30,000 bases of DNA from Endozoicomonas elysicola. Its GTDB lineage: Bacteria > Pseudomonadota > Gammaproteobacteria > Pseudomonadales > Endozoicomonadaceae. Below, piece after piece: positions 1,360-25,171 of the stretch. The DNA is taken from assembly GCF_000710775.1 (NCBI RefSeq), contig NZ_JOJP01000001.1:295083-325082 (forward strand), in the 5' to 3' direction. A program made the translations under genes and the position numbers. Below the pieces are notes generated by a model that worked only from the letters and a program-made list of their open reading frames with translations, had not been told where the DNA came from and did no database searches. Numbering within the stretch: the stretch's first letter is position 1; every line of letters starts with the position of its first letter.

Positions 1360-1390
1360 AACGAAATAAAAGAATAATGAGTTCGTCACT

Positions 1391-4300: not shown

Positions 4301-4519
4301 GTAGCCGGATTAATTCCAACCGCATACGGAATAGCTGGGACGAATTCTTATATAACACCAATGGTTATGGCGATGGCCTGGGGGGTTGGCTTTGGTATGT
4401 TTGTCACCTTATTGCTCTTACCCTGTCTCTACACAATTGATCGCGATATTAAGGCCTATTTCCATCGCCGATCAGAAGCAAAGAAAGATCTGAGCTGGCA
4501 AAATTCTGAGCAAGTTTAG
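1391..4519 (+). CDS. RND efflux transporter permease (AcrB/AcrD/AcrF superfamily)
   Basis: 1042-aa ORF with an N-terminal TM helix followed by a large periplasmic domain. Hydrophobic bundles lie at roughly aa 330-480 and 860-1020, separated by a second large soluble loop, which is the classic 12-TM RND architecture. It is directly coupled to the adaptor gene upstream. No outer-membrane factor gene is present in the window. Confidence 0.9.
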   Translation: MKSLLPFFIARPKIVNLLVGCVFLAGFLLLDGLRYEYNPRVDMGTVNITTTRLGSGPEEIERSITMPIEEELLKVEGIEKIFSSSMDGMSVITARLDINYHDKTLLLSDIQKAVDRAYTRLPQDLLDKPLIEEQSTQKTPVIEIHLVGNVSEEILRASARKVAEGLREVEGVSGEHRIGYRRSEVKVFLSPEKLTQLGISIDEVRKAIVSRNVRDSGGSLSSFNAEKKVISVGQFQQPKDIESVIIRAYEPGNVVRVSDVASVISGYGDWEVESRTDGRRSIILQVHKKPTSDELHTASNVRNYIERMRAQMPAGIELIDVNDISRLTIQMLDVLVSNAALGLALVLVILYVTLSPRLAFWVAMGLPFSIILTFLTIDALGISVNAINLVAIILMLGILVDDAVVVGESVQYQRELGLSGPEAAIKGTQSVAKPVMFAVLTTILAFVPMLAMGGRDGAFMKDFPIAVLIVLTVSLFESQYILPTHLAHKSGSIEQKQSRFLSRWSSIYEKVISTLIRHSRKSTLAFIVVFIGVMAFGASTINFQLYPAVDIDNVNVKIELPAGSRMTDTREVVSALETRARELIPASDLLNITSQIGHHDTDFYGATEGRSESWALMIVQLKPLSQRTVKTHEMVELLRTELKKVSPVTHLVVEPQTDIPVTDKPIQVEFISSEESRFPAAQKLLDYLEQHPAVTESWSSFKPGRDVVDLTFNYELLASRGLTVREITDAVRVAMDGLIVDELQTLDERIYYRLQYPPSRESQLSTLENLSIINHRGEQIFLNSLVEFNWRSGEADIKHYQGRRTTTVYAEMDTAVMSLEQLNQDVSDFIATQSWPQTHPDLRVYQGGALVQQADSLGRMGDAFLICLLAIFIALVLLFNSYSQPALVLLCLPFGVMGVVLGFGLQGIDMGYVALTGVLGLMGVLVNDSLVLLHTLNNQKTDRASLLSNSEIAAGAAMRFRPIVITSLTTVAGLIPTAYGIAGTNSYITPMVMAMAWGVGFGMFVTLLLLPCLYTIDRDIKAYFHRRSEAKKDLSWQNSEQV

Positions 4520-5305: not shown

Positions 5306-5902
5306 TCAGGCTGATATTTTAGGCTTCACGTCAGTGGTACCCATCAGCCGAGGTCGGTTCAACTCCATTTCAACCAATGGCATCACCTCTTTCATGGTTT
5401 TGCCAGAGCGGATGGCCAGGTCCTGATACTCTTTGGTATTCAAACCTTTCCAGTGCATATCCTGATCAGACACCTGACGAACCGGTTTGGCCGGTGAACC
5501 AATCAAAAGCTGTCTTGCTTCACCCTGAAAGCCAGCTTTCACAAAACTCATGGCCGCTACAATGCTCTCTTCCCCGATAACAGCACCGTCCATTACCACC
5601 GAGTTCATGCCAACCAGTGCATTTCGACGGATGACACAACCGTGAAGAATAGCGCCATGGCCGATATGTCCATCACGTTCGACAACCGTGTCCATATCGC
5701 AGTAGCCATGCATTACACAGCCATCCTGAAGGTTGGCACCCTCCTCCAGAATCAAGCGACCATAGTCGCCTCTCAGACTGGCAACAGGGCCAATATAAAC
5801 ACCCGGCCCGACAATCACATCACCAATCAACACCGCGGTTGGATGGACATAGGCAGTAGGGTCTACCACCGGTACCAGTCCTTCAAACTCATAACAGGGC
5901 AT
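5306..5902 (-). CDS. caiE: Carnitine operon protein CaiE (hexapeptide-repeat / gamma-carbonic-anhydrase-like fold)
   Basis: 198 aa. [49 protein letters not shown] ... [17 protein letters not shown] ... NRPRL.GTTDV.PK tracks my recollection of E. coli CaiE nearly residue for residue. An AAGGGAG RBS lies 8 nt upstream of the ATG at 5902. Confidence 0.9.
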
Positions 5903-6022: not shown

Positions 6023-6310
6023 TCAGCCGTAGCGGAACTCAATACCAAAGGTACCCTGTGGGTAGTGCCATTTTTTGATAATGGTGTCACCACAGAGAAT
6101 ACGACAGGTACCACACTCCAGGCAGCCAGCGGAGTCAAAATGGATATTGCCATTTTCGTCACGCTTATAAAGACCAGCAGGGCAGGCAGCTTCCAGCTTG
6201 GCAAATTCTGCCGGATCCGGATTCTCAACCAGTTCGATATGAGGATTGCCTTCATCAACAAAGAATTTGTTAATGCCCAGCTTTACATCAACATTGACCT
6301 TCTCGCTCAT
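6023..6310 (-). CDS. fixX: Ferredoxin-like protein FixX
   Basis: 95 aa. NVDVKLG.NKF.VDE..PHI ... CPAGLYK ... GCLECGTCRI ... P.GTFG.EFRYG matches remembered E. coli FixX. The start overlaps the fixC stop (ATGA at 6307-6310). Confidence 0.9.
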   Translation of the reverse strand: MSEKVNVDVKLGINKFFVDEGNPHIELVENPDPAEFAKLEAACPAGLYKRDENGNIHFDSAGCLECGTCRILCGDTIIKKWHYPQGTFGIEFRYG

Positions 6311-7593
6311 AGCGCAGTCGCTCCCTTGAAGCCATCTTTAATCAGGTTCATGAAACCGGCCTGCTTCAGGTGAGGCATCACAATTTTCCGCAGTGGAGCA
6401 GAAGTGCCGTTCATGGTGTAAAGGTCTTTCATGATGCCGGTCATCATGGTTGGATACTGGTTAAACATTCTTGGGTTATCCAGGAAGCCGGGAACCTTCT
6501 TATAGAGCTGAAGGTCTTTCATCACAAAGCTGTTATCCAGCGTTGTTTTGTAGGAGGCCAGACCCGCTTCACTGAAGTCGCCCGCCTCTTTAGCCTTGAT
6601 GATGGCATTGGCAGCTGCTTCACCGGAGGCAATGGCCAGGTCCATTCCCCGAATGGTAAAGCCAATATTCAGACAGAGACCTGCGGCATCACCGGCAATC
6701 AGAACGCCATCACCCACCATCTTCGGCACCATGTCATAACCACCTTCCGGTACAACGTGGGCAGAATATTCTACGGTCTTACCACCAGCGATCAGCGGCT
6801 TAACGGTTGGATGATTTTTGAAGTCTTCCATCATCTGAGGAATGCTTTTGCTGACCTTGTCAATGTTATGCAGACCAAACACCAGCCCCAGAGAAACGCT
6901 GTCTTCATTGGTGTACAGGAAGCCACCACCCATCTGGCCATCAGAAGGTGAGCCAACAAACAGCCAGGCAGCACCTTCATTATCCATGCAACCAAAACGA
7001 TCATTGATCTGCTGGCGGCTCAGCTCAATGACTTCCTTAACACCCACACCGGTGTTGTGTGCATTTACACCGGTCACCATGCCCAGCTTCTGGCCCAGCA
7101 TGGAGTTCACACCATCGGCAAGAAGCACAACATCGGCTTCCATCTCTTCGCCACCGGCAATAACACCACAGACCTTACCGTCGCGAACAATCAGATCATC
7201 AACATGAACACCCGGAACAATGCTGGCACCTTCAGATTCAGCTTGTTCTGCCAGCCACTGATCAAATTTTGAACGCAGCACAGCATAAGAGCGACTGCCT
7301 GGATCTGCGGCTTCAGGGCTTGCATAGTCAAGCGTCACACTGCTGCTGCCATCCATAAAAGAGACCTTCTCATGGACAATGCAGCGCTCAACAGGAGCTT
7401 CTTCAGCAAAGTTGGGGAAGATTTTCTCGATACTGTGGGCATAAAGGCGACCACCGGTCACATTCTTTGACCCTGGAAAGTTGCCCCGTTCAATAACCAG
7501 TGTTTCCAGACCGGCCTTGGCTAACAGGTACGCACTGATGCAACCGGCAAGTCCTGCCCCGACAATGATTACATCAAATTTATCTTCGGACAT
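6307..7593 (-). CDS. fixC: Electron-transfer-flavoprotein:quinone oxidoreductase-type flavoprotein FixC
   Basis: 428 aa. The N-terminal FAD dinucleotide fold is KFDVIIVGAGLAGC. The length and the position between fixB (plus an insert) and fixX are as in E. coli fixABCX. A GAGGGGA RBS lies upstream of the ATG at 7593. Confidence 0.88.
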   Translation of the reverse strand: MSEDKFDVIIVGAGLAGCISAYLLAKAGLETLVIERGNFPGSKNVTGGRLYAHSIEKIFPNFAEEAPVERCIVHEKVSFMDGSSSVTLDYASPEAADPGSRSYAVLRSKFDQWLAEQAESEGASIVPGVHVDDLIVRDGKVCGVIAGGEEMEADVVLLADGVNSMLGQKLGMVTGVNAHNTGVGVKEVIELSRQQINDRFGCMDNEGAAWLFVGSPSDGQMGGGFLYTNEDSVSLGLVFGLHNIDKVSKSIPQMMEDFKNHPTVKPLIAGGKTVEYSAHVVPEGGYDMVPKMVGDGVLIAGDAAGLCLNIGFTIRGMDLAIASGEAAANAIIKAKEAGDFSEAGLASYKTTLDNSFVMKDLQLYKKVPGFLDNPRMFNQYPTMMTGIMKDLYTMNGTSAPLRKIVMPHLKQAGFMNLIKDGFKGATAL

Positions 7594-7671
7594 GGTGTCC
7601 CCTCACTTCTAACGATATGCACCTGGTAGTGCAATTCCATTTATTGATTAAACTTTTCCGGCCCACGCTGT

Positions 7672-9270
7672 TTATTGGCTTAAAAGAGCGTTATATGGGA
7701 TGGCCCAGTAATAGATAAGAAAGGTGGAAACCAATACCCCGGCAGCCACCATAATCCAGCCGTAGTAGCGACTTCTGACATACTCTGCCGCCACCGTTTC
7801 TGATGCGGGTATCTGGTGAATTTTGTCCTGGTAAGTAATCTCTTCGATGGTCTTGGTCTGGCCTTTTGAGCCCCAGATACCAAGCACGATACTGATGGCT
7901 ACGCCAATAAAGAAAGGATCAAAAAGATTAACCAATGGCACACCGGCCAGCTCTTTAAGCAGCTTAGCGACCATATACCCAAAGAAACCGCCCGCCATGG
8001 CCAGGTAAGCGCCACGTTCTGTCAGCTTCTTACTCCAGACACTGGCAAAAGCAACGTAACCCCAGGATGCCGCGATGATCGTGCTGGCAAACCAGGCAAT
8101 GACACGGATACTGGCCATATCCATACTGGCAATCATCAGTGACAGTAAACTGACCAGCAGCATCATCCCACGGGTGAAGCGCAGTTGTGATTTCTCACTG
8201 GCAAACTTGATATTCAGAATATCGCTGGACAGGCTGAAGCCCACCACCGACAGAAAAGTACATGCTGAAGTAAGACCGGCAGTCAGAATACCCGCGAGCA
8301 GAGCTACACCCACCAGCGGAGGCATTAACTCCATGGCAGCCCAGATCATGACCTTTTCAGGCTGATCCATCGCTGGATTCACAGGAATGACACTGATGGA
8401 CATCAGATAGAGGTAGAGCAGAAAAATTACCGTCAGCAGCGCCATCATCACACTGGAGCGCAGAATCACATGTTCATTTCGCGCCATCAGGTTCCGGCCA
8501 GCCTGCCAGGGGCTGACGGCAACGGTTACCAGCCAGATAATGCCCATGGTGATGCCGTAAAACACCATATCAAACTCGGAGCCACCACGAGGGTTACCGT
8601 GGTAATCCAGCAGTCCCGGTGGCGTTTCTGGATTACGGGCCAGCGTATCAAGCAGATTCTCAAGACCACCTGCGGCTTCAAATACATAAGGCCCGGCAAA
8701 GATCGTGATGCCCAGGAAGAACAGGCACATAACGGTGTCTGTCAATACGCTTCCACGAGCACCGGAATAGAAGGTAAACAGGGTGATGCCGACCCAGGCA
8801 ATCAAAAGACAGGTTATACGACTGTAACCAGTTAATGTTTCCATCAGCAGGCCGGTACCCTGTAGAACACTGATCAGATAAGCGAACAGGGAGGCTACCG
8901 TAATCATGGCAGCCAACCGGCGAATACGAAGGCTGTTAAACCGATTAGAAAAATAGGTAGGCATGGTATTAACCATGGCCCTGCGAATATAGCGACCAAA
9001 AAACAGGCCACCGATCACATACCCTCCGGCACAGAGCGTATTCAGTAAAAGCATGGTGGTAATGTTGCCACCGTAGCTGAAAGCGGTATCCCCCATAAAC
9101 CCATTAGTACTGAGCATGGAGGCAAATAAGGTGCAGGTAATAAATAACGTGGGAGCATTGCGACCGCAGACATAATAATCATCAATGCCTTTAACCTTCA
9201 TTCCGGCGTATGCACCAATCAACACGAATACAACAATGCTGACAAGAACGCCGGCGGCATAAATACTCAT
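7672..9270 (-). CDS. Sodium:solute symporter (SSS) family transporter, substrate unknown
   Basis: 532 aa and almost entirely hydrophobic, with about 13-14 predicted TM segments. The N-terminal region (VFVLIGAYAGMKVKGIDDYYVCGRNAP) resembles the SSS family (PutP/PanF/ActP-like) entry motif. It is embedded between fixB and fixC on the same strand. Confidence 0.7.
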   Translation of the reverse strand: MSIYAAGVLVSIVVFVLIGAYAGMKVKGIDDYYVCGRNAPTLFITCTLFASMLSTNGFMGDTAFSYGGNITTMLLLNTLCAGGYVIGGLFFGRYIRRAMVNTMPTYFSNRFNSLRIRRLAAMITVASLFAYLISVLQGTGLLMETLTGYSRITCLLIAWVGITLFTFYSGARGSVLTDTVMCLFFLGITIFAGPYVFEAAGGLENLLDTLARNPETPPGLLDYHGNPRGGSEFDMVFYGITMGIIWLVTVAVSPWQAGRNLMARNEHVILRSSVMMALLTVIFLLYLYLMSISVIPVNPAMDQPEKVMIWAAMELMPPLVGVALLAGILTAGLTSACTFLSVVGFSLSSDILNIKFASEKSQLRFTRGMMLLVSLLSLMIASMDMASIRVIAWFASTIIAASWGYVAFASVWSKKLTERGAYLAMAGGFFGYMVAKLLKELAGVPLVNLFDPFFIGVAISIVLGIWGSKGQTKTIEEITYQDKIHQIPASETVAAEYVRSRYYGWIMVAAGVLVSTFLIYYWAIPYNALLSQ

Positions 9271-9464
9271 AACCCACTTCCCACAGGTGCGCCCGGTAAT
9301 GCTTCCGGTGCTGTCACAGATGTTTCTTCAATATTGTTACTATCAATGCTTTGCTGATTGTTAGAGTTGTGTCTTTTTTGCTCAAGATATAAGACTCTAT
9401 TCATCAACAGGCCAACACCTGACAGAAAGCTGCCAATAAACAATGAAAAAATGATTTCACCCAT
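9267..9464 (-). CDS. Small single-pass membrane protein translationally coupled to the SSS transporter (hypothetical)
   Basis: 65-aa ORF with one N-terminal TM helix (IIFSLFIGSFLSGVGLLM) and a polar N/Q/S-rich tail. A GGGAGA RBS lies about 9 nt upstream of the ATG at 9464. Its stop overlaps the transporter start (ATGA, 9267-9270). I recognise no family. Confidence 0.5.
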   Translation of the reverse strand: MGEIIFSLFIGSFLSGVGLLMNRVLYLEQKRHNSNNQQSIDSNNIEETSVTAPEALPGAPVGSGL

Positions 9465-9494
9465 GATTGAACGTCTCCCTGCCAGTTATAAGAG

Positions 9495-9578
9495 CGCTTT
9501 CCGCAACCCGCTGGCCGCTTCCCGTAAAAGCATATGTCTTATCTTTTTCGGGGAGCAGGCAGCGGAGACCGGACGGCG
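9495..9578. repeat. Intergenic imperfect-palindromic element, copy B (REP/MITE-like)
   Basis: Lies between the fixB stop and the small ORF start. The sequence is CGCTTTCCGCAACCCGCTGGCCGCTTCCCGTAAAAGCATATGTCTTATCTTTTTCGGGGAGCAGGCAGCGGAGACCGGACGGCG. It is near-identical in its core to copy C. About 19 of 23 positions pair between the arms CCGCTGGCCGCTTCCCGTAAAAG and CTTTTTCGGGGAGCAGGCAGCGG. Confidence 0.75.
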
Positions 9579-9591
9579 AATCAGCTGATGC

Positions 9592-10539
9592 TTATTTCTC
9601 GCCAAACGCAGCAGTCAGTGCTGGCACGATCTTGTAAAGATCGCCAACAATGCCGTAGTCCGCGTATTGGAAGATCGGAGCATTTTTGTCCTTGTTCACT
9701 GCAACAATCACCTGGGCACTGTTGGCAGCAACCATGTGCTGGATCTGTCCGGAAATACCCAGTGCCAGATACAGTTCTGGTTTTGGCATCACACCGGAGA
9801 TACCCACATAACGCTCTTGCTCCAGCCACTTCTCGCTCTCAGCGATTGGACGGGAACAACCCAGCTCAGCATCAATGGCAGCACCCAGGGCTTCAGCCAT
9901 GGCAATGTCTTCTTTCTTGGCAATACCACGGCCGATACTAACGATACGCTTGGCCTTACCCAGGTCTACCTGAGTAGCCTGCTTAGGCTGACGCTCCAGA
10001 CACTTGATGGCTGCTTTTGGTGCAACGAATTCAACGTTGATGGTTTCACCGGTTCTGGCAGCGTCTTCGCTTTCAGGTGCAAATACACCACCACTGACAA
10101 CCATCACGGCAAACGGAGAAGCCACTTTCTCCTGACCGTGGGCGAGACCACCGTAAACCATGCGCTTACCGGTAACACCACCGTCTTCAACGGTCACGTC
10201 ATACGCTTCAGTTACCACACCCGCCTTCAGCTTAACGCCCAGCAGTGAAGCCAGAGCCTTACAGCAGCGAGTGCCTGGCAGCAGAATCAATGCAGAATCG
10301 GCAGCTTCAGAGATGGCCTTGGCCATGGTGTCAGCGTAATCTTCAACAATGCGTGAAGTTTCTCTGGCACCCAGCAGATAAACTTTGTCAGCACCCTGGG
10401 CGTAAGCTTTTGCTACATCACCATCTGTGCCAATAACAAAGGCAGAAACCGTATCACCCAGTTCGCGGGCACCGGCAAGTACTTCTGCCTGACGGGATTC
10501 GACGTCGCTGAAAACCCAAACGTTTGCAATCTTACTCAT
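9592..10539 (-). CDS. fixB: Electron transfer flavoprotein alpha subunit FixB
   Basis: 315 aa. The C-terminal ETF-alpha FAD-binding signature is PELYLALGISGQIQH..G...A..IVAVNKDKNAPIF..ADYGIVGDL. It follows fixA after an 11-bp gap. Confidence 0.9.
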   Translation of the reverse strand: MSKIANVWVFSDVESRQAEVLAGARELGDTVSAFVIGTDGDVAKAYAQGADKVYLLGARETSRIVEDYADTMAKAISEAADSALILLPGTRCCKALASLLGVKLKAGVVTEAYDVTVEDGGVTGKRMVYGGLAHGQEKVASPFAVMVVSGGVFAPESEDAARTGETINVEFVAPKAAIKCLERQPKQATQVDLGKAKRIVSIGRGIAKKEDIAMAEALGAAIDAELGCSRPIAESEKWLEQERYVGISGVMPKPELYLALGISGQIQHMVAANSAQVIVAVNKDKNAPIFQYADYGIVGDLYKIVPALTAAFGEK

Positions 10540-10550: not shown

Positions 10551-11330
10551 TCAATTCAGAATTTTACGCAGGTGGCTTACCAGCTCAGCGATTTGATCTT
10601 CACCGTCGCCTTCAATCATGACGTTGAGGCGTTCTTTCTGCTTGGGTGCTTTGGTTTCCAGCAATTCAACCGATGCTGCACCCTGCGCCACGCCCAGCGC
10701 TGATGGTGTCATCGTACCTACTGGCTTCTTACCGGCAGCCAGAATGGCCTTCATGCCAGGAATCGCAGGGGTGTTGATGTCTGCAGAAACAGAGATAACG
10801 GCAGGCAGAGTGACTTCCAGCACTTCCACTTCACTTTCCAGTGCACGCTCAACCACCAGTTTGCCGTTGTTCGCGGAAACAATTTTGCTGACGCCGCTCA
10901 GGGTGGCGACATCCAGCAGTGCACCCAGACGGGTACCGACCTGCTGAGCCAGAAGGTCTCCGGAACCGTCACCACACAGGATCAGGTCAAAGCCAATCTC
11001 TCTGGCGGCAGTTGCCATCACTTCGGCCGTCTGCTCTGGAAGCAGATGCGTATAGGCATCATCCATAACCGCAGTCATGGCGTCAGGACCGCGGGACAAG
11101 ATGTCCTTACGGGCCTTGCTGTTTTCCAGTGTCTTGTCACCCACGCTCAGAGCGGTGATGTGGGCTTCACCCACCAGGCCTTTTACTTCAACAGCTGCTT
11201 CAATAGCATTCAGATCAAATGGGCTGATCTTTGGCGTTGCACGGCTAACGTCCAGTGAGCCATCGGCCTGTACAACGATATCCTGCTCTTCAGGTACCAG
11301 TTTGCATCCAACAATAATTTTCATAGTCAT
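10551..11330 (-). CDS. fixA: Electron transfer flavoprotein beta subunit FixA
   Basis: 259 aa. MKIIVGCKLVPEEQDI ... ALSVG ... RKD.LSRGPD ... GFDLILCGDGS.DL.AQQVG ... IEGDGE.QIA is colinear with remembered E. coli FixA. Confidence 0.9.
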   Translation of the reverse strand: MTMKIIVGCKLVPEEQDIVVQADGSLDVSRATPKISPFDLNAIEAAVEVKGLVGEAHITALSVGDKTLENSKARKDILSRGPDAMTAVMDDAYTHLLPEQTAEVMATAAREIGFDLILCGDGSGDLLAQQVGTRLGALLDVATLSGVSKIVSANNGKLVVERALESEVEVLEVTLPAVISVSADINTPAIPGMKAILAAGKKPVGTMTPSALGVAQGAASVELLETKAPKQKERLNVMIEGDGEDQIAELVSHLRKILN

Positions 11331-11418
11331 TCAGCTTTCTACCTAAACTGCCCGGAGCACTCTGCCCCGGACATACTTCAAAACGACCTCTGCTCACCGG
11401 AACAGAGGGTATGCATCT

Positions 11419-12270
11419 TTATTTCCACTCAGCGAGGGCGTAATTCAGATATGCGATTTCTGGATCGTTGGCATCAATCACACGGAAGTGGATGGAGTTG
11501 TCATCCCACTTCCACATCTGGGTCTTGATGGTGCAGCCTGGGTACAGAGACTTGGTAATCCGAGTCTTGAAGCGGGTCAGGCGCTCAGGCTCACCAGGCA
11601 ACAGCGTGTTGATGATGTGACGGCAGGCAAAACCGGCAGTACTTACTGCATGCAGGTTTGGCTTGGGATGGTCAAACTTCTGGGCATATTCCCAGTCAAT
11701 GTGCTGAGGATGGTAGTCACCATTCAAACGGTAAATGATGGCCTGGTTCAGAGGCACCTGTTCCACAACTTCAAAGTCAGGCTCTCTCTCAGGAATCTCA
11801 ACAATATCCGCTGGTGCTTTTGGACCACCGAAGCCACCGTCGTACAGACAGCAATCCCAGCTTTCATTGGTAAACAGCAGGGTGCCATCTTCATCAAAGG
11901 TCTCGCCAATATGCTGAGCCAGACAGCCACGACCTGGACCACGGTCATAAAGACCTTTCAGTAATACTTTGGTGCTGAGTTTGCCAGACAGCTTGGTCAG
12001 CGGCTGATGGAACTGAAGATCAAAGCCCCAGTGGAGGGAACCACCCCACTCAAAACCAAAGTCGATGGTTTTGGTGACTTCGCTGTCCACAATCGGCATG
12101 GCAGCAAACATCGGCAGAATTTTCTGATTCTTTTCGTAAACGTACTCAAGATCAGTCTTGCCATCGGCACCGGCACCACAGCCCAGGCCAAAGATAATCA
12201 GTTCACGGAAGTCATATTCCCGTTCAAAAGGGCCGTATGTTTTGCCCTGCATATCCAGTTTTAAAGCCAT
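11419..12270 (-). CDS. Double-hot-dog (R)-specific enoyl-CoA hydratase-2 / MaoC-like protein, catalytic motif intact
   Basis: 283 aa. It is colinear with the hydratase-2 domain of eukaryotic MFE-2 as I remember it. Shared blocks are GGFGG, LNQA.IYRL.GD..P.HID (here YRLNGDYHPQHID, D185/H190), KP.LH...T.GF..R, and R.K.R....YPG.T..T.MWK....IHF. Codon 185 is GAC at 11716-11718. Confidence 0.8.
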   Translation of the reverse strand: MALKLDMQGKTYGPFEREYDFRELIIFGLGCGAGADGKTDLEYVYEKNQKILPMFAAMPIVDSEVTKTIDFGFEWGGSLHWGFDLQFHQPLTKLSGKLSTKVLLKGLYDRGPGRGCLAQHIGETFDEDGTLLFTNESWDCCLYDGGFGGPKAPADIVEIPEREPDFEVVEQVPLNQAIIYRLNGDYHPQHIDWEYAQKFDHPKPNLHAVSTAGFACRHIINTLLPGEPERLTRFKTRITKSLYPGCTIKTQMWKWDDNSIHFRVIDANDPEIAYLNYALAEWK

Positions 12271-12311
12271 CGTCGTACTCCTGACGAAATTAATTTTTCA
12301 GTCGTTCGCCT

Positions 12312-13163
12312 TTATTGCCACTCAGCCAAGGCAAAATTCAAAAGAATGGTTTCAGGATTGTTGGCATCGACTACACGGAAGCGAACGGACTGGTCAGGCA
12401 TTTCCCAGACCTGAGTGCGCACATCCATTCCCGGATAGCTGACGCCGGTAAAACGAAGTTTGAAACGCTTCATGCGTTCGGGACGACGTCCCATAAACTG
12501 ATTAGTGATGTGTCTGAATGCCAGACCCGCCAGACCGAGGCCCATATAGAAAGGCTTTTCGTAACCAAACTCCTTGGCATATTCCCAGTCAGCGTGCAGG
12601 TGGTGATAGATACCAATCAGACGGAAAACCAGGGCACTGTTCAGGTTCAGGTGGTCATCAAATTCAAAGTCAGGGGCACGATCCGGCATCTCCACGATGT
12701 CCTGTGGTGCTTTAGGCCCACCAAAACCACCGTCGTATAGACAGATATCCCAGTTATCGATGGTCAGCAGTTTGTTGCCATCCTCATCGAAGGTTTCTCC
12801 GGTTTTCTGTGCCAGGCAGCCTCGGCCTTCACCTCGATCGTACAGACCGGTCAGAGTAATATTGGTGGTCAGCTTGCCTGCCTTTTTGACAAAGGGGTGA
12901 TGGAATTTCATATCAATCCCCCAGTGCAGAACACCATCCCAGTTAAAACCGAAATTAATATCCTCGGTTACTTTGTCGGACGCATCGATAGTCGCCAGAA
13001 AGACAGGGTTTACCTTGAGGTCTTTTTCAAATGCCCAGTCCAGGTCGGTTTTACCATCCTGAGCGGCACCACTGCCCACCCCGAAAGCCAGCAGATCATT
13101 CAGGTCATACTGAGTTTCATAGGGTCCATATACCTTACCTACCAGATCTGTATTAATCGTCAT
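12312..13163 (-). CDS. Double-hot-dog MaoC/hydratase-2-like paralogue with degenerate catalytic motif
   Basis: 283 aa. It aligns gaplessly with the downstream paralogue at about 50% identity by eye (25 of the first 50 residues). The hydratase-2 motif position reads FRLIGIYHHLHAD. The catalytic Asp is replaced by Ile185 (ATC at 12609-12611), and the following P.LH block reads PFYMG. Confidence 0.78.
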   Translation of the reverse strand: MTINTDLVGKVYGPYETQYDLNDLLAFGVGSGAAQDGKTDLDWAFEKDLKVNPVFLATIDASDKVTEDINFGFNWDGVLHWGIDMKFHHPFVKKAGKLTTNITLTGLYDRGEGRGCLAQKTGETFDEDGNKLLTIDNWDICLYDGGFGGPKAPQDIVEMPDRAPDFEFDDHLNLNSALVFRLIGIYHHLHADWEYAKEFGYEKPFYMGLGLAGLAFRHITNQFMGRRPERMKRFKLRFTGVSYPGMDVRTQVWEMPDQSVRFRVVDANNPETILLNFALAEWQ

Positions 13164-13279
13164 GGTTTTGCTTCCGCGTCTATCGATATGTTTGTTTTTT
13201 ATTCATCACATGCTGATGACAATCAGCATGCACACCATTCATCAAAAACCCGCATCAGACTTGTTCAACACATTCACTC

Positions 13280-14932
13280 TTAATTCAGTACGGTATCCAC
13301 CCTGATTTCAGCTGTGTGATTCCGGTTAATCAGATAATTCTCAACTTGCTGGAATTCAGATCTGGAAAGCACTTCTTCTTTCAATACATTTTTCTGTACT
13401 TTTCCTGTACAGGTTCTTGGAAACTCTGTTCTGAATTCCACATGGGCTGGCACTTTAAAAGCCGCCATATGGGTTGAACAGAATTCAAGAATTTCTTCAG
13501 TGCTTAATGTTTCACCTTCTTTAAGAATGACAAACGCGTTAACCACTTCGTCATACATTTCATCTGGAATACCGATAACGGCGGCTTCAATAATTTTGGG
13601 ATGGCAGACCAGTGCATTTTCAATTTCAGAGCTGGAAATATTTTCGCCGGAGCGCTTAATCAAATTGACATTACGGTCAACAAAATAGAAATAGCCGTCT
13701 TCATCCATGTAGCCGCTATCACCGGTATAAAGCCAACCATGACTGTCCAGTGCTTTTGCTGTTGCTTCCGGGTTGTTGTAATACTCTTTAAACAGCGTTT
13801 TTCCTGGTTCACCCTTGATGACAATTTCACCGGTGGTATTTGGTGTTGCTTCGTTACCCTGATCATCGACAATTTTGATTTCGTAGCAGAATCCGGGTCT
13901 GCCAATGGATGGCCAGCGACGCTCATAGCCGGGGGTATCACCCAGATTGCCAACGATGGTTTCGGTCATGCCATAAGACGTCAGCAGCCGTACACCAAAG
14001 CGCTCTGAAAACTGATCTTTTTCCAGCTCAGAAAGTGTCAGATAAAACATAACCTCCCGCAGACAGTGGCCCTTCTCCCAGGCTCTCTCTGGCTGCAGCA
14101 TGAGGGTGCGAATCATCAGCGGAATACATTCGGTCACGGTTGCCCGGTAATGGCAGATCTGACTCCAGAAGCGAGATGCACTGTACTTCTCTATCAGGAT
14201 CAGCGTGGCGCCTGAGGCAAACGTTGGCATCGCTGCAGTACATTGAAAATCAATGTGGCAGGCTGGCATGGTGCTCAGGTACCGGTCTTCTGAACGCAGA
14301 GAGCATAACCAGGAGGTATATATTCCGGAAAAGTTAAGGTTGTAGTGCGTAATCACCACACCTTTTGGTCGAGACGTTGTGCCCGACGTAAAAATAATCT
14401 CTACTGGATCACTGCTGTCTAAAGGAACTGTTTTTTCAAGTGTTGTTGATTGCTTTCTTAACAGGGCACCAAAATTCAAAGTACCAGCAGGTTCTTCATC
14501 TTCTTCAATTCGTGTGATCAGGATGTGCTCAAGAGGAATGCCATCCTTCTGGCTGATTTCCTGATAAAGAGAAACAAACTGCTTCTCAACAATGACCGTT
14601 TCTACCTGGCATTTCTTCAGAATATAGCTGGCTTCGTGGTGCAGGGACTGCACATTAATCGGAACGGTAATGGCTCCAATTTTCGCCAGACCAAACCAAC
14701 TCATTAAAAATTCAGGGCTGTTGAATAACTGGGTAGCAACCCGGTCACCCTTTTTAACGCCCAGTTTCAGAAAGAGGTTTGCAGCCTGATTTATCTGATG
14801 ATTAAACTCAGCGTATGAAAGTTCACTGGTTTTACCTGATACATCTTCAAAGACAATGGCTGTATTTTCAGCATACGCTTGAGCCAGCCGATCCCATGTA
14901 TCACGTAAATTTTTATTGCCAACCAAGTCCAA
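13280..14932 (-). CDS. caiC: Crotonobetaine/carnitine-CoA ligase CaiC (ANL adenylating enzyme)
   Basis: 550 aa. FTSGTTSRPKGVVITHYNL, YRATVTECIP.MIRTLM.QP, GVRLLTSYGMTETIVG and GW..TGD.GY.DE.G.FYFVDR match remembered E. coli CaiC. A TTG start at 14932 is supported by the N-terminal alignment MDLVGNKNLR vs MDIIGGQHLR and by a GAGGTG RBS. The protein carries a C-terminal tail of about 30 aa that the remembered E. coli protein lacks. Confidence 0.88.
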   Translation of the reverse strand: MDLVGNKNLRDTWDRLAQAYAENTAIVFEDVSGKTSELSYAEFNHQINQAANLFLKLGVKKGDRVATQLFNSPEFLMSWFGLAKIGAITVPINVQSLHHEASYILKKCQVETVIVEKQFVSLYQEISQKDGIPLEHILITRIEEDEEPAGTLNFGALLRKQSTTLEKTVPLDSSDPVEIIFTSGTTSRPKGVVITHYNLNFSGIYTSWLCSLRSEDRYLSTMPACHIDFQCTAAMPTFASGATLILIEKYSASRFWSQICHYRATVTECIPLMIRTLMLQPERAWEKGHCLREVMFYLTLSELEKDQFSERFGVRLLTSYGMTETIVGNLGDTPGYERRWPSIGRPGFCYEIKIVDDQGNEATPNTTGEIVIKGEPGKTLFKEYYNNPEATAKALDSHGWLYTGDSGYMDEDGYFYFVDRNVNLIKRSGENISSSEIENALVCHPKIIEAAVIGIPDEMYDEVVNAFVILKEGETLSTEEILEFCSTHMAAFKVPAHVEFRTEFPRTCTGKVQKNVLKEEVLSRSEFQQVENYLINRNHTAEIRVDTVLN

Positions 14933-15111
14933 TGTAACACCTCATCGCTGAGCAATTCGCCTGCAAACCCCGGTTATTTATTCAAGGCATTCGGGTAGCT
15001 GCCGGAAAATCAGACGGTCTTTTCCGACAGTTCACCAAAATGCGCTCTTGCCCAGTTCACTCTTTCAAGTTCGGCTTTTAAAAAGCCAGCCAATAATCAA
15101 ACGTTCGTCGT

Positions 15112-16329
15112 TTAATCAGCCAGCTTGACGGCACCGACTTCTGCCAGAGCATGGATCTCCTGATCCGAGTATCCGAGATCACTCAGAATACTTGCGGTGT
15201 CCATACCCCGTGATGGTGTGCTCCGCCAGATCTGTCCTGGGTTTTTGGTAAATTTAGGAACAATGTTTGAACCCTTGCACTTACCACCAGACAGCGTGTC
15301 CCACTCAACAATGTTTTCGCGGGCGATGTACTGTGGGTGGCTTTCCAGTTCAGGAATGGTCAGCACACGGGTCGCAGCGATGGTCATGGACTCCAGCAGC
15401 TCCAGCGTTTCATCGATGGTTTTCTCACCGAAGAATGCATCCAGCTTGTCTTCCAGAATCTGCCCCTGAGAACTATCAGCACGAATACCAGGAATACCTT
15501 CAGGAAACTCGTCAGTGCCCAGAATGTGGGTATGATCCAGAACCTCAAGCAACCTTCGGATCTGTGGACCACCTACCCAGGACATGGTGATACAGCCGTC
15601 ATTACAGCGATAAACGCCACAACCTACCTGAGTTGGATCCTTACCTTTGGTTGTGCGGGGATAGAGCGTGCCGTTATTGAAGTAGTCGATCATGTAATAG
15701 TGGCTGACTCGCAGCAGAGCCTCATACATGGCAACGTCAACACTTTCACCTTCCCCGGTTCTTTTAGCATTGTGAAGTGCCGCCAGGGCGGAACTCAGCA
15801 CCATGAAGCCGCTGATGTAGTCACCAGAGTATGGGAATGCAGGTACTGGCTGATCACCATCACCGTTCTGAACCAGGTAACCACTGAATGCCTGGGCAAT
15901 GTGGTCATAAGAAGGCAGGTTGATGTACTGATCTTCACCGTACTGGCCATAACCTGATAGATGCACAATAACCAGCGACTTGTTGTGTTCCCACAGCAGT
16001 TCATCGGTCATACCACGGCGTTTGAAGGCTGGTCCTTTACTGGACTCGATAAAGATATCGGTGGTTTCCATCAGCTTGAGGAATGCTTTCTTGCCTTCCT
16101 CAGAGAAGATATCGATGGACAGACTGTGCAGATTACGGCGCGCCAGCTCGCGGTAATTTTTCATTACCCGGATGGTATCGGGATATTTGGTGTGCTCGAT
16201 CCAGATAACTTCTGCACCCCATTCCGCCATCATCTGGGCTGGAAATGGGCCAGCAATTTCAAGCGCTGAAAAAACAACCCGGACCCCGTGCAAAGGGCCA
16301 AATTCCGGTGTAGACACCTTGTTGGACAT
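15112..16329 (-). CDS. caiB: L-carnitine/gamma-butyrobetainyl-CoA:CoA transferase CaiB (family III CoA-transferase)
   Basis: 405 aa. FGPL.G.RVVFS..EIAGPF..QM.AEWGAEVIWIE, FLKLMETTDIFIE.SKGPAF.RRG and VPELES.PQY.ARE.I..W....G...KG.NI.PKF..NPGQIWR..PS.GMDTA.IL are essentially colinear with remembered E. coli CaiB. Confidence 0.92.
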   Translation of the reverse strand: MSNKVSTPEFGPLHGVRVVFSALEIAGPFPAQMMAEWGAEVIWIEHTKYPDTIRVMKNYRELARRNLHSLSIDIFSEEGKKAFLKLMETTDIFIESSKGPAFKRRGMTDELLWEHNKSLVIVHLSGYGQYGEDQYINLPSYDHIAQAFSGYLVQNGDGDQPVPAFPYSGDYISGFMVLSSALAALHNAKRTGEGESVDVAMYEALLRVSHYYMIDYFNNGTLYPRTTKGKDPTQVGCGVYRCNDGCITMSWVGGPQIRRLLEVLDHTHILGTDEFPEGIPGIRADSSQGQILEDKLDAFFGEKTIDETLELLESMTIAATRVLTIPELESHPQYIARENIVEWDTLSGGKCKGSNIVPKFTKNPGQIWRSTPSRGMDTASILSDLGYSDQEIHALAEVGAVKLAD

Positions 16330-16417
16330 TATTCATTCCCCCGCTAAGCAATATATTCACCTTCAGAAAGGTAACCCCGCAGGGTCAGCCCTTTCCAAAG
16401 GTTCAGTTAACGACAGA

Positions 16418-17554
16418 TTAACGATACTTTTTCAGTACCTGGCGACCGAGAGTCAGAATCTGCATTTCGTCAGATCCACCGGAAACACGGTCAACCCGCA
16501 GGTCACGCCAGAAACGTCCAACGCGATGTCCAGTGATACCGATACCGCCCAGTACCTGCATGGCAGAGTCCACTACTTCGAAGGCAGCATTGGCACAGAA
16601 GTATTTACACATGGCAGCGTCACCGGAGTTCACAGTGCCGTTGTCGCACTTCCATGCAGTTTCATAAACCATGTTCTTCATGGCGTTCAGTTTGATCGCC
16701 ATGTGAGCAAATTTTTCCTGGATCAGCTGAGTACGACCGATGGCTTCACCAAACTGGATACGCTGGTTTGCATACTTGGCAGCGTCTTCAAAGGCGCACA
16801 GGGCAACACCGTAGTTGGTGCAGGCTACCAGGAAGCGTTCAGCATCAAACTCTTCCTTAACACGGTTGAAGCCGTTGCCTTCAGAGCCAAACATGTCCTT
16901 CTCTTCCAGCTCAACGTTATCGAAAATCACTTCGCAGCAGCTGTCCATGCGCAGACCGATCTTGTCCAGTGGGTTCAGCTTGATGCCAGCCTTGCTCATA
17001 TCCACGAACCACTCGGAGAAGACCGGTGAGTCTGGAGAAGCAGAGTCGCGGGCCATCACCACCAGGTAAGGACAGTGGGAGCTACTGGTGATAAAGCACT
17101 TGTGACCGTTCAGGTAAACTTTGCCATCCTTGCGGGTGTAAGTGGTTTTCAGACTACCTACGTCAGAACCGGCACTTGGCTCAGTAATGGCGGAGTTCCA
17201 CATTTGTTCGCCAGTGCCGCGCAGAGCAAAAATCTTGTCGATCTGTTCCTGGGTACCATGACGCAGCATGGTATTGAAACCAGGCAGCTGATACAGAACG
17301 TAGGTAGGCGCACCGTGACGCCCAAGCTCTTCCCAGATAGCGGTCAGAGTAACCAGACCAGCATCCATACCGTCGTGTTCTTCTGGCAGCAGCATTGTGT
17401 CGATGCCCAGTTCAGCCAGAGCCTTCACCCAGCGCAGTGGGTATTCGTGCTTTTCGTCACATTCAACGAAGTAGGCTTCCCAGTTCTCTCTTTCCATCAG
17501 TTCGCGGACACCCGCAACAAACAGTTCCTGCTCGTCAGATAAATTAAAATCCAT
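16418..17554 (-). CDS. caiA: Crotonobetainyl-CoA reductase CaiA (acyl-CoA dehydrogenase family)
   Basis: 378 aa. [60 protein letters not shown] and [63 protein letters not shown] are a very close match to remembered E. coli CaiA. Confidence 0.93.
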
Positions 17555-17604: not shown

Positions 17605-19119
17605 TTACCAGCGATTCTTTTTGGCATCTTTCAGGAATGCCCAGATAACCAGAATATTTACGATGGCCAGTGGCGCGCCCCCTGCGATGATTGCTGTCTG
17701 CAGAGGCTTCAGGCCACCCAGAGCAAGCAGGGTAATACCCAGAATCCCCACCAGTAGAGACCAGCCAAGTCGAATCCACAGTGGTGGTTCGTCGTAACCA
17801 GTCGCTTCCTTACAGGTAGACATGGCCAGGGTGTAAGAACAGGCGTTTACCAAGGTGATCGTGGCCAGGAAACAGAGCACCAGGAAGACACCGATGGTGA
17901 AGGTGCTGAGTGGCAATGTTGCCCAGATTTCGATAATGGCCCGTGGTACATCGTTCTCACTGATGATGGTGCTGATATCCAGCAGTCCCTTGTGCATAAC
18001 CTCAACGGTATAGCTGCCGAGGATGCCCCAGAGTGTCCATGTGGTCAGAGTCAGACCGCCCACCATGCCCAGACAGAGTTCACGTACCGTTCTGCCCTTG
18101 GAGATACGGGCAAGGAAGATGCACATCTGGATGCCGTAAATCATCCACCAGGCCCAGTAGAAGACGGTCCAGTTCTGAGGAAAACCACTCTCACCGATGG
18201 CATCGGTATAGAACAGCATCCTGCCGGCATTCATCAGGAGAACACCAAAGGAGTCGGTGAAGTAATTCAGAATAAAGGTGGTACCACCAACGATCAGAAC
18301 CCAGGCAAGCACAAAGATACTCAGGTAGCTTCTCAGGTCACTGGCGATACGAATGCCTTTCTGAAGACCGAAGGCCACACAGATCGCGTTGAAAACAATA
18401 AGGAAAGAGATAATGGTCGCATCAACTTCCAGGCTACGCTCAATACCAAAAAGATACTCGATACACTCAGTAACCAGTGGTGTCGCCAGACCAAGACTGG
18501 TACCCATCGCCAGAATCAGCGCAACGATGTACAGGTTATCTACGAAGGTTCCAAAAAGGCCGTTACTGTGCTTTTCACCCACCAATGGTTCAATGGTCTT
18601 ACTGGGGCGAATAACATTGACCTTTTTCACATACAGGAAGTAGCCAAAAGCAACACTTAACAGACTGTAGGTTGCCCAGGGTAAAGGTCCCCAGTGGAAG
18701 AGAGAGTAGGCAACACCGTATTCTTTTGCCTGTTGAGAGAAAGGTTCGATACCGAATGGAGGCGTGAGGATATAGTAATAAACTTCAATCGTACCCCAGA
18801 AAAGTACGGCTGCCGACGTACACGAGGCAAACATCATGAAGATCCAGCTGGCAGTACTGAATTCAGGCTCTTCATCACCCAGCTTTTTATTGGCATAAGG
18901 ACCAAAGAGCAGCCAGAAATAGCCGCCCAGCATGATGACCATATACCACTCAAATGCCCAGGCCCATTTGTAGGTCACATATTGAAAGACCTGATTAATC
19001 ACCTGATTAGCGGCATCCAGGTCCCGAACCGTGAAATAAATCAATATGGCAACAATAGCTAACGAAGGTATTGCTATCTTCGTATCTATTCTTATTGCCT
19101 TTTTTGGTTCAGCATCCAT
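17605..19119 (-). CDS. caiT: L-carnitine/gamma-butyrobetaine antiporter CaiT (BCCT family)
   Basis: 504 aa. [74 protein letters not shown] and [28 protein letters not shown] match remembered E. coli CaiT throughout. An AGGGGGA RBS lies about 7 nt before the ATG at 19119. Confidence 0.93.
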
Positions 19120-19900
19120 TCAAACTTCCCCCTATTAAAAGCCTTGAATAACATACTAAAAAGCTAATCTGATTTTTGGGTGTTCAATCTTTTTTCTATA
19201 AATAAATGTTTTCAACGATGGATCAATTGAATACTCAAAAACAGACTCTGAAACAGAAAATGAATAATCTGGAATAAAAATTAATTCAGAATTTTACGAA
19301 TAACTCATCATGAAGAAGACCAGATCTTAAGGTCGCATAGCAGGACAACTGGTCTTTAAATGATCAACAACACATCATAGTAATAAATGTAACTTCTCCC
19401 ATTCATCTTAACCAGGAGATAAAAAATAAGCGCTTCTATGAAGGCAGGCAGAATATAATATACTCACTATTTCCATAATTTGATTTGAAGCAATTATTGG
19501 ATGAATAGTTTTTTCCTTTATCTTTCATTTACTATTCATAAACTTAAAGAGTTTTGAGTATTTTTTAAGCAACACAAAGCGTACGTCACTATTTATTAAA
19601 AAACAGATTAAATATTATTCAGGACAAATATTAATCTACTGATCATCAATTGATCACTGGCCAAAAAAAGCACTAATAAAACAGTCAAACTTATTAACCT
19701 AGATCAATTTCTCAATCATCAACGATAAAATACACCCCAATAGTTTGATGAGAATCATTTATTAACAATCAAAAGCTATTCGACGTGAAAAATACTTATT
19801 TTCCAGAAATAAAATAACATTCCTTATAAAAGTATTGCCGACGATACTCTATCTCTTTTTAACAACCCGATTCTCATTACTAAAATTCACTTTTTAGAAA
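19120..19900 (-). promoter_or_regulatory. Long AT-rich ORF-free upstream region of the cai-fix cluster (promoter/regulatory region, position of promoter not resolved)
   Basis: About 780 bp at roughly 30% GC by eye, against about 50% in the flanks. No ORF of 60 aa or more occurs on either strand. It lies directly upstream of caiT. It contains FNR/CRP-family-like half-matches (TTGATTTGAAGCAA at 19480-19493, TTGATGAGAATCAT at 19745-19758) and three GATCAATT motifs (about 19221, 19648, 19702). Confidence 0.5.
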
Positions 19901-19935
19901 AGCCTTTATAAAAATGACTCGTTTTTATAAAGGCT
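19901..19935 (-). terminator. Candidate rho-independent terminator of the RpiR-family regulator gene
   Basis: Perfect 14-bp inverted repeat AGCCTTTATAAAAA (19901-19914) / TTTTTATAAAGGCT (19922-19935) with the 7-nt loop TGACTCG. It lies 58 nt downstream of the regulator stop. On the minus-strand transcript it is followed by UUUCU. The stem is AT-rich, so stability is moderate. Confidence 0.5.
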
Positions 19936-19993
19936 ATTTGTGACAGGATTCTCATATTGAATTTCTGTATCCAGAAAGATACATAATCAAAAA

Positions 19994-20848
19994 TCAACCG
20001 TTTTCCTGGTCCTCCTGACGGCAAAGTAACCCCATCACCAGACATTGAGCCAAGTGCATAGAGGTACTCAATGAACGCATCCCCATCATTTCCGCTTCTT
20101 TAACCTGAAGCCCGTGGGTAATCACTTCTTTGCAGGGATGGATACTGTGATCGGTCAGAACCAGAGATGGACAATGACGCTCATGGGCAATCTGAATGCA
20201 CTCATTGGTCTCATCGGCATGTGGGTGGTAGCTGACTGCCAGCAGCAGGTCATTCTCAGTCAACCGCTTTAGCTGGTTTTTATGCATGGCACCCACACCA
20301 TCGAGCAAGATAACATCGACATCTGCTCGCATCAGGGCATAGCAAAGGTAATACGCAACCGGAAAGGCACGACGAGCACCGGTTACATAAATAATACGGG
20401 CACTACTCATCAGGCCGAGCGCTTTATCAAAATCTGCAGGAGAAATATCAATCGATAGGTTCTCGATCGCAAGACTCTGCGGCCCAGAAAAAGCATCCAG
20501 CAAATGATGACCTTCTTTAATGGCGCCAGTCATTTCCGAAGCGTGTCGAACCCTCTCACGGTAACCACTGACTTGTCCCTTCAGCTGGCTGCGATATAGC
20601 TGTTGTAGTTCAGAGAAACCGGCAAAGCCAAAAAAGTTGGCAAAACGCACCAGCGTTGAAGGCGACACATCAATCTCACGGGCAATAACCACCAGGTTTT
20701 CCAGTGCAACCGTATTGGGATTCTGAACAAAAAAATCCGCAACCAAACGCAGGCGCTTACTCATTGAGTCGTAGCGATTGATGATGTCACTTTTCAGTTC
20801 TTCAAGTGTTTGAGGTGTTGCTGGCTTCAGCTTGGTATTCATATTCAA
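19994..20848 (-). CDS. RpiR/MurR-family transcriptional regulator (HTH + SIS domain), probable inositol-catabolism regulator (IolR-type)
   Basis: 284 aa. The N-terminal RpiR HTH region is (S)MSKRLRLVADFFVQNPNTVALENLVVIAREIDVSPSTLVRFANFFGFAGFSELQ. The C-terminal SIS-like region is IIYVTGARRAFPVAYYLCYAL. It sits adjacent to the iol operon. RpiR-type IolR repressors are known in proteobacteria. Confidence 0.8.
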   Translation of the reverse strand: MNMNTKLKPATPQTLEELKSDIINRYDSMSKRLRLVADFFVQNPNTVALENLVVIAREIDVSPSTLVRFANFFGFAGFSELQQLYRSQLKGQVSGYRERVRHASEMTGAIKEGHHLLDAFSGPQSLAIENLSIDISPADFDKALGLMSSARIIYVTGARRAFPVAYYLCYALMRADVDVILLDGVGAMHKNQLKRLTENDLLLAVSYHPHADETNECIQIAHERHCPSLVLTDHSIHPCKEVITHGLQVKEAEMMGMRSLSTSMHLAQCLVMGLLCRQEDQENG

Positions 20849-21011
20849 TGACTTGTACTTGGTAATGGATCAAATGTGGATTCAGCCCTGCATATGCTTG
20901 GTAAAGAGCAGCAAAAACAATCCCTGACTCAATCCATCACCTATTTATACTCTCTTCTTTATTTAGACGGTCGCCACGGCAACCGTATTATATACACACT
21001 TGTGTATAAAA

Positions 21012-21854: not shown

Positions 21855-21939
21855 GGTCTTTCCACCTGAATAATGAGAGTGGGAAGTACTGCAGGCTACC
21901 TTACCCCCTACTGCAGTACCCCCAAATTGTCACAGCCAT

Positions 21940-22785: not shown

Positions 22786-22821
22786 GTTTAACTCTTTCCC
22801 GGAGTGGTTTTTTAAGCCTTC

Positions 22822-22898: not shown

Positions 22899-22900
22899 TC

Positions 22901-25056: not shown

Positions 25057-25171
25057 GGTCTTACTCTCAAATGGTCTTAAAAATGTTTTGAATTAATTTT
25101 TTTCTGGTTCGGGCAGGCTTCCCCACCTGCCCGTTATCCATAACGTATTGATTCAGCTTTCTATTGGGTGA

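Follow-up and report, generated by a model that had tools for sequence, protein, structure and literature searches.

What does a hydratase-fold protein do in a carnitine operon once it has lost half of the residue pair with which its relatives handle water? The question is raised by a 30,000-nt window of Endozoicomonas elysicola (contig NZ_JOJP01000001.1, positions 295,083 to 325,082; the window is this whole stretch), in which two adjacent genes of a cai-type operon on the reverse strand encode hot-dog proteins of 283 aa each: a protein without the catalytic Asp, here called U (open frame at 12312..13163), and an Asp/His-complete paralogue, here called D (11419..12270). In hydratases of the MaoC type the dyad His activates water and the Asp positions it (PMC11321319). 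From the letters of the sequence, the original prediction had proposed that U had lost this Asp and that it forms either an obligate heteromer with D, in the manner of mycobacterial HadAB/HadBC, or a neofunctionalised copy. By comparing U with solved structures, with its relatives and with the operons in which those relatives lie, we arrive at a different partner: U most likely serves as the second component of an accessory module linked to CaiB2, a particular type of the coenzyme A (CoA) transferase CaiB.

The loss of the Asp is real. Both proteins match the MaoC domain and the N-terminal domain of the MFE-2 hydratase-2 (for U, PF01575 at 40.5 bits with a cut-off of 27, and PF22622 at a sub-cut-off 22.3 bits), and both are therefore double hot-dogs of the MFE-2 hydratase-2 type; they align with each other without a gap at 54% identity. 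HMMER alignments of U to human MFE-2 (1s9c) and to the Phytophthora (3kh8) and M. tuberculosis (3khp) structures set 'rliGIyhhlH' opposite 'rlsGDwnplH', with Ile185 (ATC, 12609..12611) opposite the catalytic Asp, His190 (12594..12596; invariant in three family alignments) opposite the catalytic His five residues further on, and Gly208 opposite the oxyanion-hole Gly. D, aligned separately, reads 'rlnGDyhpqH' and keeps both Asp185 (GAC, 11716..11718) and His190, while U carries KPFYMG (residues 203-208, 12540..12557) where the family has KP[IN]LH[AG], as had also been proposed. Counting along 1s9c, we take Ile185, His190, Gly208 and Glu46 of U to be the equivalents of human Asp510, His515, Gly533 and Glu366, respectively. 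The AlphaFold2 model of U (predicted local distance difference test score 94.8 and predicted template modelling score 0.92, from 62 input sequences) superposes on 1s9c with a Foldseek template modelling score of 0.91, and the column assignment is therefore not left to hang on a weak alignment. The predicted column holds for the MFE-2-type and bacterial MaoC structures on which the assignment is based; PhaJ and HadB, which the original prediction had also named as enzymes to align, were not reached by a phmmer search of the Protein Data Bank with the C-terminal half of U.

Measured against these enzymes (human 1s9c, C. tropicalis 1pn2/1pn4 and MaoC 3khp), U shares the double hot-dog fold, the length and the motif architecture, and retains Glu46, the catalytic His and the position of the oxyanion-hole Gly. 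It differs in the replacement of Asp by Ile and of PILHG by PFYMG, in an identity of only ~24%, and in its place in a carnitine operon, whereas theirs is fatty-acid or bile-acid beta-oxidation. Ile185 is a real departure rather than ordinary variation, since the Asp is present in 65 of the 65 full-length Asp-type family members analysed and in all newly retrieved relatives with a readable motif except the Asp-less protein P0271. We also looked for another acidic residue that might have taken over in the active site, which would have overturned the predicted loss: no substitute conserved acidic residue was found in the dyad motif region of U and its closest Asp-less relatives, whose only new acidic residues are Asp63 and Asp68 of the N-terminal half and the one at position 169. 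Because the hydratase dyad is broken at Asp185, U is almost certainly no longer a hydratase.

A U which still works as a (de)hydratase, by way of some other residue or a bound water, is improbable. Such an enzyme could draw on His190, the backbone position of Gly208, Glu46 and an intact fold, and perhaps on the clade-specific Asp63 and Asp68; however, the Asp is found in every one of the more than 100 Asp-type members examined, its replacement differs by lineage and is never acidic, and Tyr180, Gln189, His207 and Ser210 around the Asp site have been lost jointly. Asp63 and Asp68, placed by the pseudo-symmetry of the two halves, would moreover lie in the N-terminal pseudo-helix and line the tail pocket, not the dyad.

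Asp-less members make up only a few 90%-identity clusters of the family, in which residue 185 is Ile in U itself and in P0001 (both Endozoicomonas), Asn in Ferrimonas kyonanensis (P0002), Cys in both Sulfurospirillum (P0003) and Campylobacterales (P0004), Ser on a low-GC metagenome contig (P0052), Asn on metagenome contigs of 60% GC (P0065) and Met in Slackia piriformis (P0271). In our trees, all of which are neighbour-joining trees without support values, U and P0001 to P0004 form one clade that spans three bacterial orders (the U clade). A scan of metagenomes with an Asp-less profile returned 80 loci and no new U-type protein, as every readable motif was of the Asp type and two were unreadable. 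Likewise, in a profile search of a library of 1.84 billion representatives, where clustering at 50% collapses the whole cai hot-dog family into one representative (P0121), no further Asp-less lineage was found, the next matches being ordinary MFE-2-like hydratases.

U belongs to a clade that is both rare and old, and it is under purifying selection. Between the window and its closest relative, an Endozoicomonas metagenome-assembled genome (L001, NZ_OZ239981.1) with 96-98% DNA identity across the operon, U differs by two amino acids at a ratio of nonsynonymous to synonymous substitution (dN/dS) of 0.036, within the 0.00-0.05 of the remaining operon genes; U is therefore not decaying. A pseudogene, against which the original prediction had argued from the intact frame, is rejected on this ratio, and a recent tandem duplication of D is rejected as well, as U shares 54% identity with D and a higher 62-65% with U-type genes from other orders. 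That U might nevertheless be a redundant duplicate en route to loss is a very remote prospect, largely refuted by the selection analysis. The rarity of the Asp-less family would suit it, as would the caiC of L001, split by a 1.4-kb insertion and separated from U by an IS66 element, and the somewhat faster divergence of the U clade (62-65% identity, against 67-77% for D between the same genomes); the intact frame, the low dN/dS, the sharing of the clade by three orders and the 26 residues fixed specifically within it all speak against decay.

Furthermore, the seven Asp-less proteins have changed in the same places. Of 89 positions conserved at 93% or more in the 65 Asp-type proteins, 50 are untouched in all seven, whereas Tyr180 (to Phe or His), Asp185, Gln189 (to Leu or Val) and Ser210 (to Gly or Ala) are altered in 7 of 7, and His207 (to Met, Gln or Phe) in every one but P0065. 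Retained throughout are His187, His190, Asp192, Trp193, Glu46 and Gly or Ala at 208. Endozoicomonas U (KPFYMGLG) and the Slackia protein (IPFYFGLG) have nearly identical blocks here, having converged on PFY[MF]GLG. Judging by these residues, the polar catalytic centre has been made hydrophobic while the rest of the protein was held constant, and the parallel substitutions look like directional change rather than random decay.

Does U serve D, its neighbour? We gathered ~160 loci by a protein search, a one-genome-per-species scan and a metagenome scan, and mapped each with tblastn. Nearly all hold a single hot-dog gene with the motif YRLSGDYHPQHIDWEYA within a caiA-caiB-caiC-Hd-fixABCX arrangement (Hd being the hot-dog gene), and a D-type gene is the sole hot-dog gene in ~150 of them, across many phyla and taxa including Shewanella, Ferrimonas, Desulfovibrionales, Bacillota, Actinomycetes, Coriobacteriia and Sutterella. 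In the sister Endozoicomonas species E. cretensis (L006) and E. atrinae (L007), D is 99-100% identical to that of the window (1-3 residues differ) and no U is present; D is therefore independent of U. The known systems of this kind, HadAB/HadBC/HadBD of mycolic-acid fatty acid synthase II and ChsH1-ChsH2 of cholesterol side-chain degradation, likewise combine a full-dyad paralogue with a dyad-deficient one, and in the window, too, the two genes are adjacent. Yet their chains are single hot-dogs (or a hot-dog plus an extra domain) that must pair to build one site, whereas U and D are each double, the N-terminal half being non-catalytic and joined to a C-terminal half in the same chain, so that the halves of the two proteins are not complementary; their catalytic subunit is not found alone, whereas D usually is, and consistent co-occurrence is lacking; ChsH2 lost its His, U its Asp; and here the Asp-less copy tracks a CoA-transferase. 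Of the two proposals with which we began, the obligate heteromer is therefore not supported, given the ~150 loci with D and no U, chains that are already double hot-dogs, and Asp-less copies that keep a CaiB and not D as their neighbour, while a neofunctionalised copy fits all of the findings.

A looser arrangement, in which U is a silent facultative partner of D and the two form a double hot-dog heterodimer with one active site, whose substrate range, stability or regulation U alters, is a doubtful but serious possibility. U and D adjoin across only 41 nt with a good Shine-Dalgarno sequence ahead of D, the cai cluster of every U-clade genome also includes a D-type gene, L085, a small contig from a metagenome, repeats the order of caiC, Asp-less copy and second hot-dog copy, residue 185 varies as expected for a dead site, and HadAB/BC and ChsH1-ChsH2 offer precedents. 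It is harder to reconcile with the ~150 operons in which D manages alone (the nearly identical D of the sister species among them), with two chains that are each self-contained, with the absence of D near the Slackia-type genes described below, or with the arrangement of the operons: adjacency of U and D is not kept, the two lying ~15 kb apart on opposite strands in Ferrimonas (L002) and being separated by other genes in two further U-clade genomes (L003, L004), whereas adjacency of U with CaiB2 is.

In these three genomes a second CaiB copy is followed directly by the U-type gene, and the pair is inserted at differing places of the operon: after D in L004 (12 nt between the two genes), between caiB1 and caiC in L003 (49 nt), and in L002 (116 nt) within a second set of genes in the order MFS-CaiB2-U-BCCT-ABC-F ATPase-CaiA2 (MFS, major facilitator superfamily; BCCT, betaine/carnitine/choline transporter), where the U-type gene occupies the slot between the transferase and the enoyl-CoA reductase. 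A dedicated CaiB-type transferase thus stands beside the Asp-less copy in 3 of the 4 U-clade genomes. The CaiB2 copies and the only CaiB of the window form one clade, whose branching order in the neighbour-joining tree equals that of the U clade, and its members, the CaiB of the window included, keep the CaiB catalytic Asp (E. coli Asp169). By clade, then, the window belongs to the genomes that combine CaiB2 with an Asp-less hot-dog protein, with caiC separating the two genes. The Campylobacterota clusters of this kind additionally encode an Abhydrolase_3 esterase (L004, 14056-15021) and TetR regulators (L003, 15389-16102; L004, 13238-13948). In Propionibacterium freudenreichii, an alpha/beta-hydrolase beside the cai cluster has been linked to acylcarnitine depletion, which hints that acylcarnitines feed these pathways.

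A similar pairing recurs elsewhere. The genes for P0271 of Slackia piriformis and for P0065 lie directly after a CaiB-like transferase gene, with a divergent LuxR-type regulator upstream, and no other cai, fix or hot-dog/D-type gene was found within 10 kb of these pairs; among cluster names, no D-type gene was seen for S. piriformis. The transferase of this unit branches among Gram-positive CaiBs and not with CaiB2 in the neighbour-joining tree, and the two hot-dog proteins are 59-63% identical to Gram-positive Asp-type proteins, against 42-48% to the U clade. From this Gram-positive affinity of both the transferase and the hot-dog proteins, we conclude that a CaiB became paired with Asp-less hot-dog proteins on at least two occasions. 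As a unit, the LuxR-type regulator, CaiB-like transferase and Asp-less hot-dog protein (L166-L170, of the Slackia piriformis type, and L082-L084) are common in human-gut metagenomes; the Slackia-type Asp-less protein is indexed in 122 blocks of the collection, and its unit lies among housekeeping genes.

What could U do for such a transferase? In E. coli, the activities of CaiD and CaiA each need CaiB for CoA cycling (PMC2131755). A stand-alone operon of one transferase gene and one hot-dog gene is sensible only if the hot-dog protein acts on the CoA ester, and we therefore put first the model in which U acts on the product of CaiB2 by a water-independent step, an assignment that we hold tentatively and at somewhat less than even confidence. 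CaiB2 would first place CoA on a carnitine-related betaine, and U would then bind the thioester in a pocket remodelled from polar to hydrophobic. A His190-dependent step without water, for example the loss of a group that leaves more readily than hydroxide, or the shift of a proton, could follow, with the product passing to CaiA/FixABCX and the CoA being recycled by CaiB2. Similarly tentative is the view that these genes constitute an accessory module of hot-dog-type carnitine operons, one that moves laterally and in which U has co-evolved with its dedicated CaiB2. By analogy, the proposed CaiB2 and U unit would mirror the two-protein unit of CaiB and CaiD in E. coli caiTABCDE/fixABCX, where, by the same logic, the transferase keeps CoA in circulation for both a (de)hydratase and a reductase (PMC2131755). 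The window has counterparts of CaiT, CaiA, CaiB, CaiC, CaiE and FixABCX, and differs in having two hot-dog proteins, one of them Asp-less, in place of the crotonase-fold CaiD, and a sodium:solute symporter (SSS) in its fix part.

A bolder form of this model is unlikely as matters stand, though worth setting out: that a CaiB-type transferase and an Asp-less hot-dog protein make up an unrecognised two-component CoA-cycling system, evolved at least twice (in marine Proteobacteria and Campylobacterota, and in gut Coriobacteriia, namely Slackia), whose hot-dog component is now a water-independent, His-dependent catalyst. For its chemistry, one possibility is a beta-eliminase that frees the ester or onium group of the CoA ester of an O-acylcarnitine, dimethylsulfoniopropionate or beta-alanine-betaine, yielding an enoyl-CoA for CaiA.

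The same co-inheritance and adjacency of CaiB2 and U would also be seen if U were a non-catalytic acyl-CoA-binding accessory of CaiB2, which holds or protects betainyl-CoA or sets the specificity of the transferase, and the variable residue 185 and the hydrophobic filling of the formerly polar site would accord with such a role. We nonetheless consider it quite unlikely: a LuxR-controlled stand-alone operon with only a transferase and an inert binder would give no net conversion, the literature searched offers no precedent for a family III CoA-transferase with a hot-dog subunit, and no fusion of a CaiB to a hot-dog protein was found among the homologues retrieved.

Several observations weigh against a catalytic U that works on the product of CaiB2. 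In the window itself U is not next to caiB2, with caiC in between, but next to D, and the L085 contig has the same succession of caiC, Asp-less copy and second hot-dog copy, the catalytic region of the latter being cut off at the contig end. The variety of residues at position 185 (Ile, Asn, Cys, Ser or Met) suits a dead site as much as one that calls for no side-chain chemistry, and elimination by His alone is implausible if it is the Asp, not the His, that handles the C2 proton in this family. For Slackia, the absence of a D-type gene is known within 10 kb only. Finally, the Asp-less lineages form a basal grade of long branches in the neighbour-joining trees, and their independence rests on identity patterns together with those trees.

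D itself presumably acts as a (carnitinyl/crotonobetainyl)-CoA (de)hydratase that stands in for CaiD. CaiD is absent from most of the ~160 mapped loci, and the use of a D-type hot-dog protein in place of the crotonase CaiD is an apparent non-orthologous replacement. Neither U nor D is matched by any NCBIfam curated model, and our searches of the literature on MaoC together with carnitine, caiA or butyrobetaine, and on Slackia, gave no paper on proteins of this family beyond one passing remark (PMC11007987). That remark concerns P. freudenreichii, whose cluster of caiABC, an MFS gene, an 'enoyl-CoA hydratase' gene and fixABCX lacks caiD and caiT and was tied with Scoary2 to changes in carnitine, acylcarnitine and (putative) gamma-butyrobetaine; its authors suggested that the 'enoyl-CoA hydratase' fills the CaiD gap (PMC11007987). 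In our Propionibacteriaceae loci (L064, L067) a D-type hot-dog gene lies at the position of that hydratase, a likeness to the D family that is one of position only; in contrast to the window, a single hydratase gene and no Asp-less copy is described there.

Some operons do combine the two enzymes. In Shewanella and Ferrimonas (L008-L022, L034, L035, L041), a CaiD with 83-89% identity to that of E. coli occurs together with a hot-dog D, in the order caiTABCD-Hd-caiE, which suggests different roles for the two. By Cahn-Ingold-Prelog bookkeeping, L-carnitine corresponds spatially to an L-(S)-3-hydroxyacyl group. On stereochemical reasoning alone, D-carnitinyl-CoA is what one would expect a classical (R)-specific hot-dog hydratase to form or consume, and CaiD and hot-dog D could together act as a carnitine racemase. 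Two further variants of the family are a cai locus of GC content 0.29 (L088), in which an Asp-type hot-dog gene and an SSS gene each occur twice, and a 443-aa protein (P0322) that joins an AMP-binding C-terminal domain to a hot-dog, being either a CaiC-hot-dog fusion or a gene-call merge.

The operon in which U and D lie runs, on the reverse strand, in the order caiT-caiA-caiB-caiC-U-D / fixA-fixB-SSS-fixC-fixX-caiE. Its first part begins with the gene caiT for an antiporter of L-carnitine and gamma-butyrobetaine (17605..19119; NF002887, 835.7 bits) and the crotonobetainyl-CoA reductase/dehydrogenase gene caiA (16418..17554; NF002885, 738.5 bits), followed by the CaiB2-type L-carnitine CoA-transferase gene (15112..16329; NF002914, 599.8 bits, and typed by trees and motif) and the crotonobetaine/carnitine-CoA ligase gene caiC (13280..14932; NF005947, 848 bits). 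A terminator-like hairpin on the same strand (11387..11408) separates D from fixA, and U and D therefore close the caiT-to-D unit. In the second part are the electron-transfer flavoprotein genes fixA (10551..11330) and fixB (9592..10539), both assigned by Pfam, a 532-aa sodium:solute symporter gene (7672..9270), fixC (6307..7593), fixX (about 6026..6310; by tblastn, 58% identical to the E. coli protein) and caiE (5306..5902). CaiT, CaiA, CaiB, CaiC and CaiE (by equivalog models) and FixC (by a subfamily model) all score above the NCBIfam cut-offs. No CaiD was matched in the window by tblastn with the E. coli MG1655 protein at E <= 1e-10, and it is the caiD slot of the E. coli operon that U and D occupy. 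An enterobacterial cai operon was considered and rejected, as there was no match in the E. coli genome collection. The SSS gene is kept at 56-67% identity, alongside CaiT, in the cai operons of Desulfovibrionales, Campylobacterota and Endozoicomonas.

Comparison with the sister species points to how U came to this operon. From about 12276 to 16400 on the reverse strand, the stretch caiB2-caiC-U has 65-73% DNA identity to the corresponding parts of E. cretensis and E. atrinae, with U as an additional gene of the window, against 92-97% in the flanks, and GC across caiC is lower, at 0.44-0.46 (13001-15000). On this difference in identity, caiB2-caiC-U has replaced a resident caiB-caiC, in what resembles the exchange of a cassette by recombination within the operon; the incoming cassette would have displaced the resident genes while leaving the resident catalytic D in place. 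Insertions are found at this part of the operon in the closest relative: in L001, a 1.4-kb insertion (6292-7682) with a 426-aa open reading frame and no Pfam match interrupts caiC, and an IS66-family transposase gene (8364-9962) lies between caiC and U, such that the cai operon may be inactivated in that strain. In the window, the 116-nt gap between caiC and U holds a perfect 9-bp inverted repeat with a 4-nt loop (CATGCTGAT/ATCAGCATG, 13209-13230), near the position of the IS66 insertion in L001.

Upstream of caiT, the stretch 19120-19990 is very AT-rich (GC 0.30 over 19001-20000, against ~0.50 elsewhere) and is presumably the promoter and regulatory region of the cai genes; no gene resembling caiF turned up in the window. 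The flanks of the operon (19994-28040 and 178-4519) hold a myo-inositol catabolism cluster, with iolB, iolC, iolD, iolE and genes for a dehydrogenase, an aldolase and an RpiR-type regulator, and a resistance-nodulation-division efflux pair.

Inert hot-dog paralogues are already known from HadA/HadC, from ChsH2 and, in MFE-2 hydratases, from the N-terminal halves; the novelty lies in a fully dyad-less double hot-dog protein that occurs in carnitine operons with an uncharacterised hot-dog family and is repeatedly coupled to a CaiB paralogue. The setting gives this some reach. Anaerobic reduction of carnitine to gamma-butyrobetaine makes up the first half of the route that leads in the gut to trimethylamine and trimethylamine N-oxide, and by it animal symbionts such as Endozoicomonas probably respire the betaines of their hosts; outside the Enterobacteriaceae, most of the cai operons examined have an uncharacterised hot-dog protein in place of CaiD. 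A catalytic U would add a new type of reaction to those of the MaoC fold, and an inert one would be a clean natural pseudoenzyme recruited to a CoA-transferase or a hydratase; with either outcome, cai-type loci from gut and marine metagenomes could be annotated better. As an accessory module, CaiB2 and U may widen the range of substrates that these operons can use, and the reading of the pair as a two-component beta-eliminase, if true, would bring new betaines of host origin within the reach of 'carnitine respiration'.

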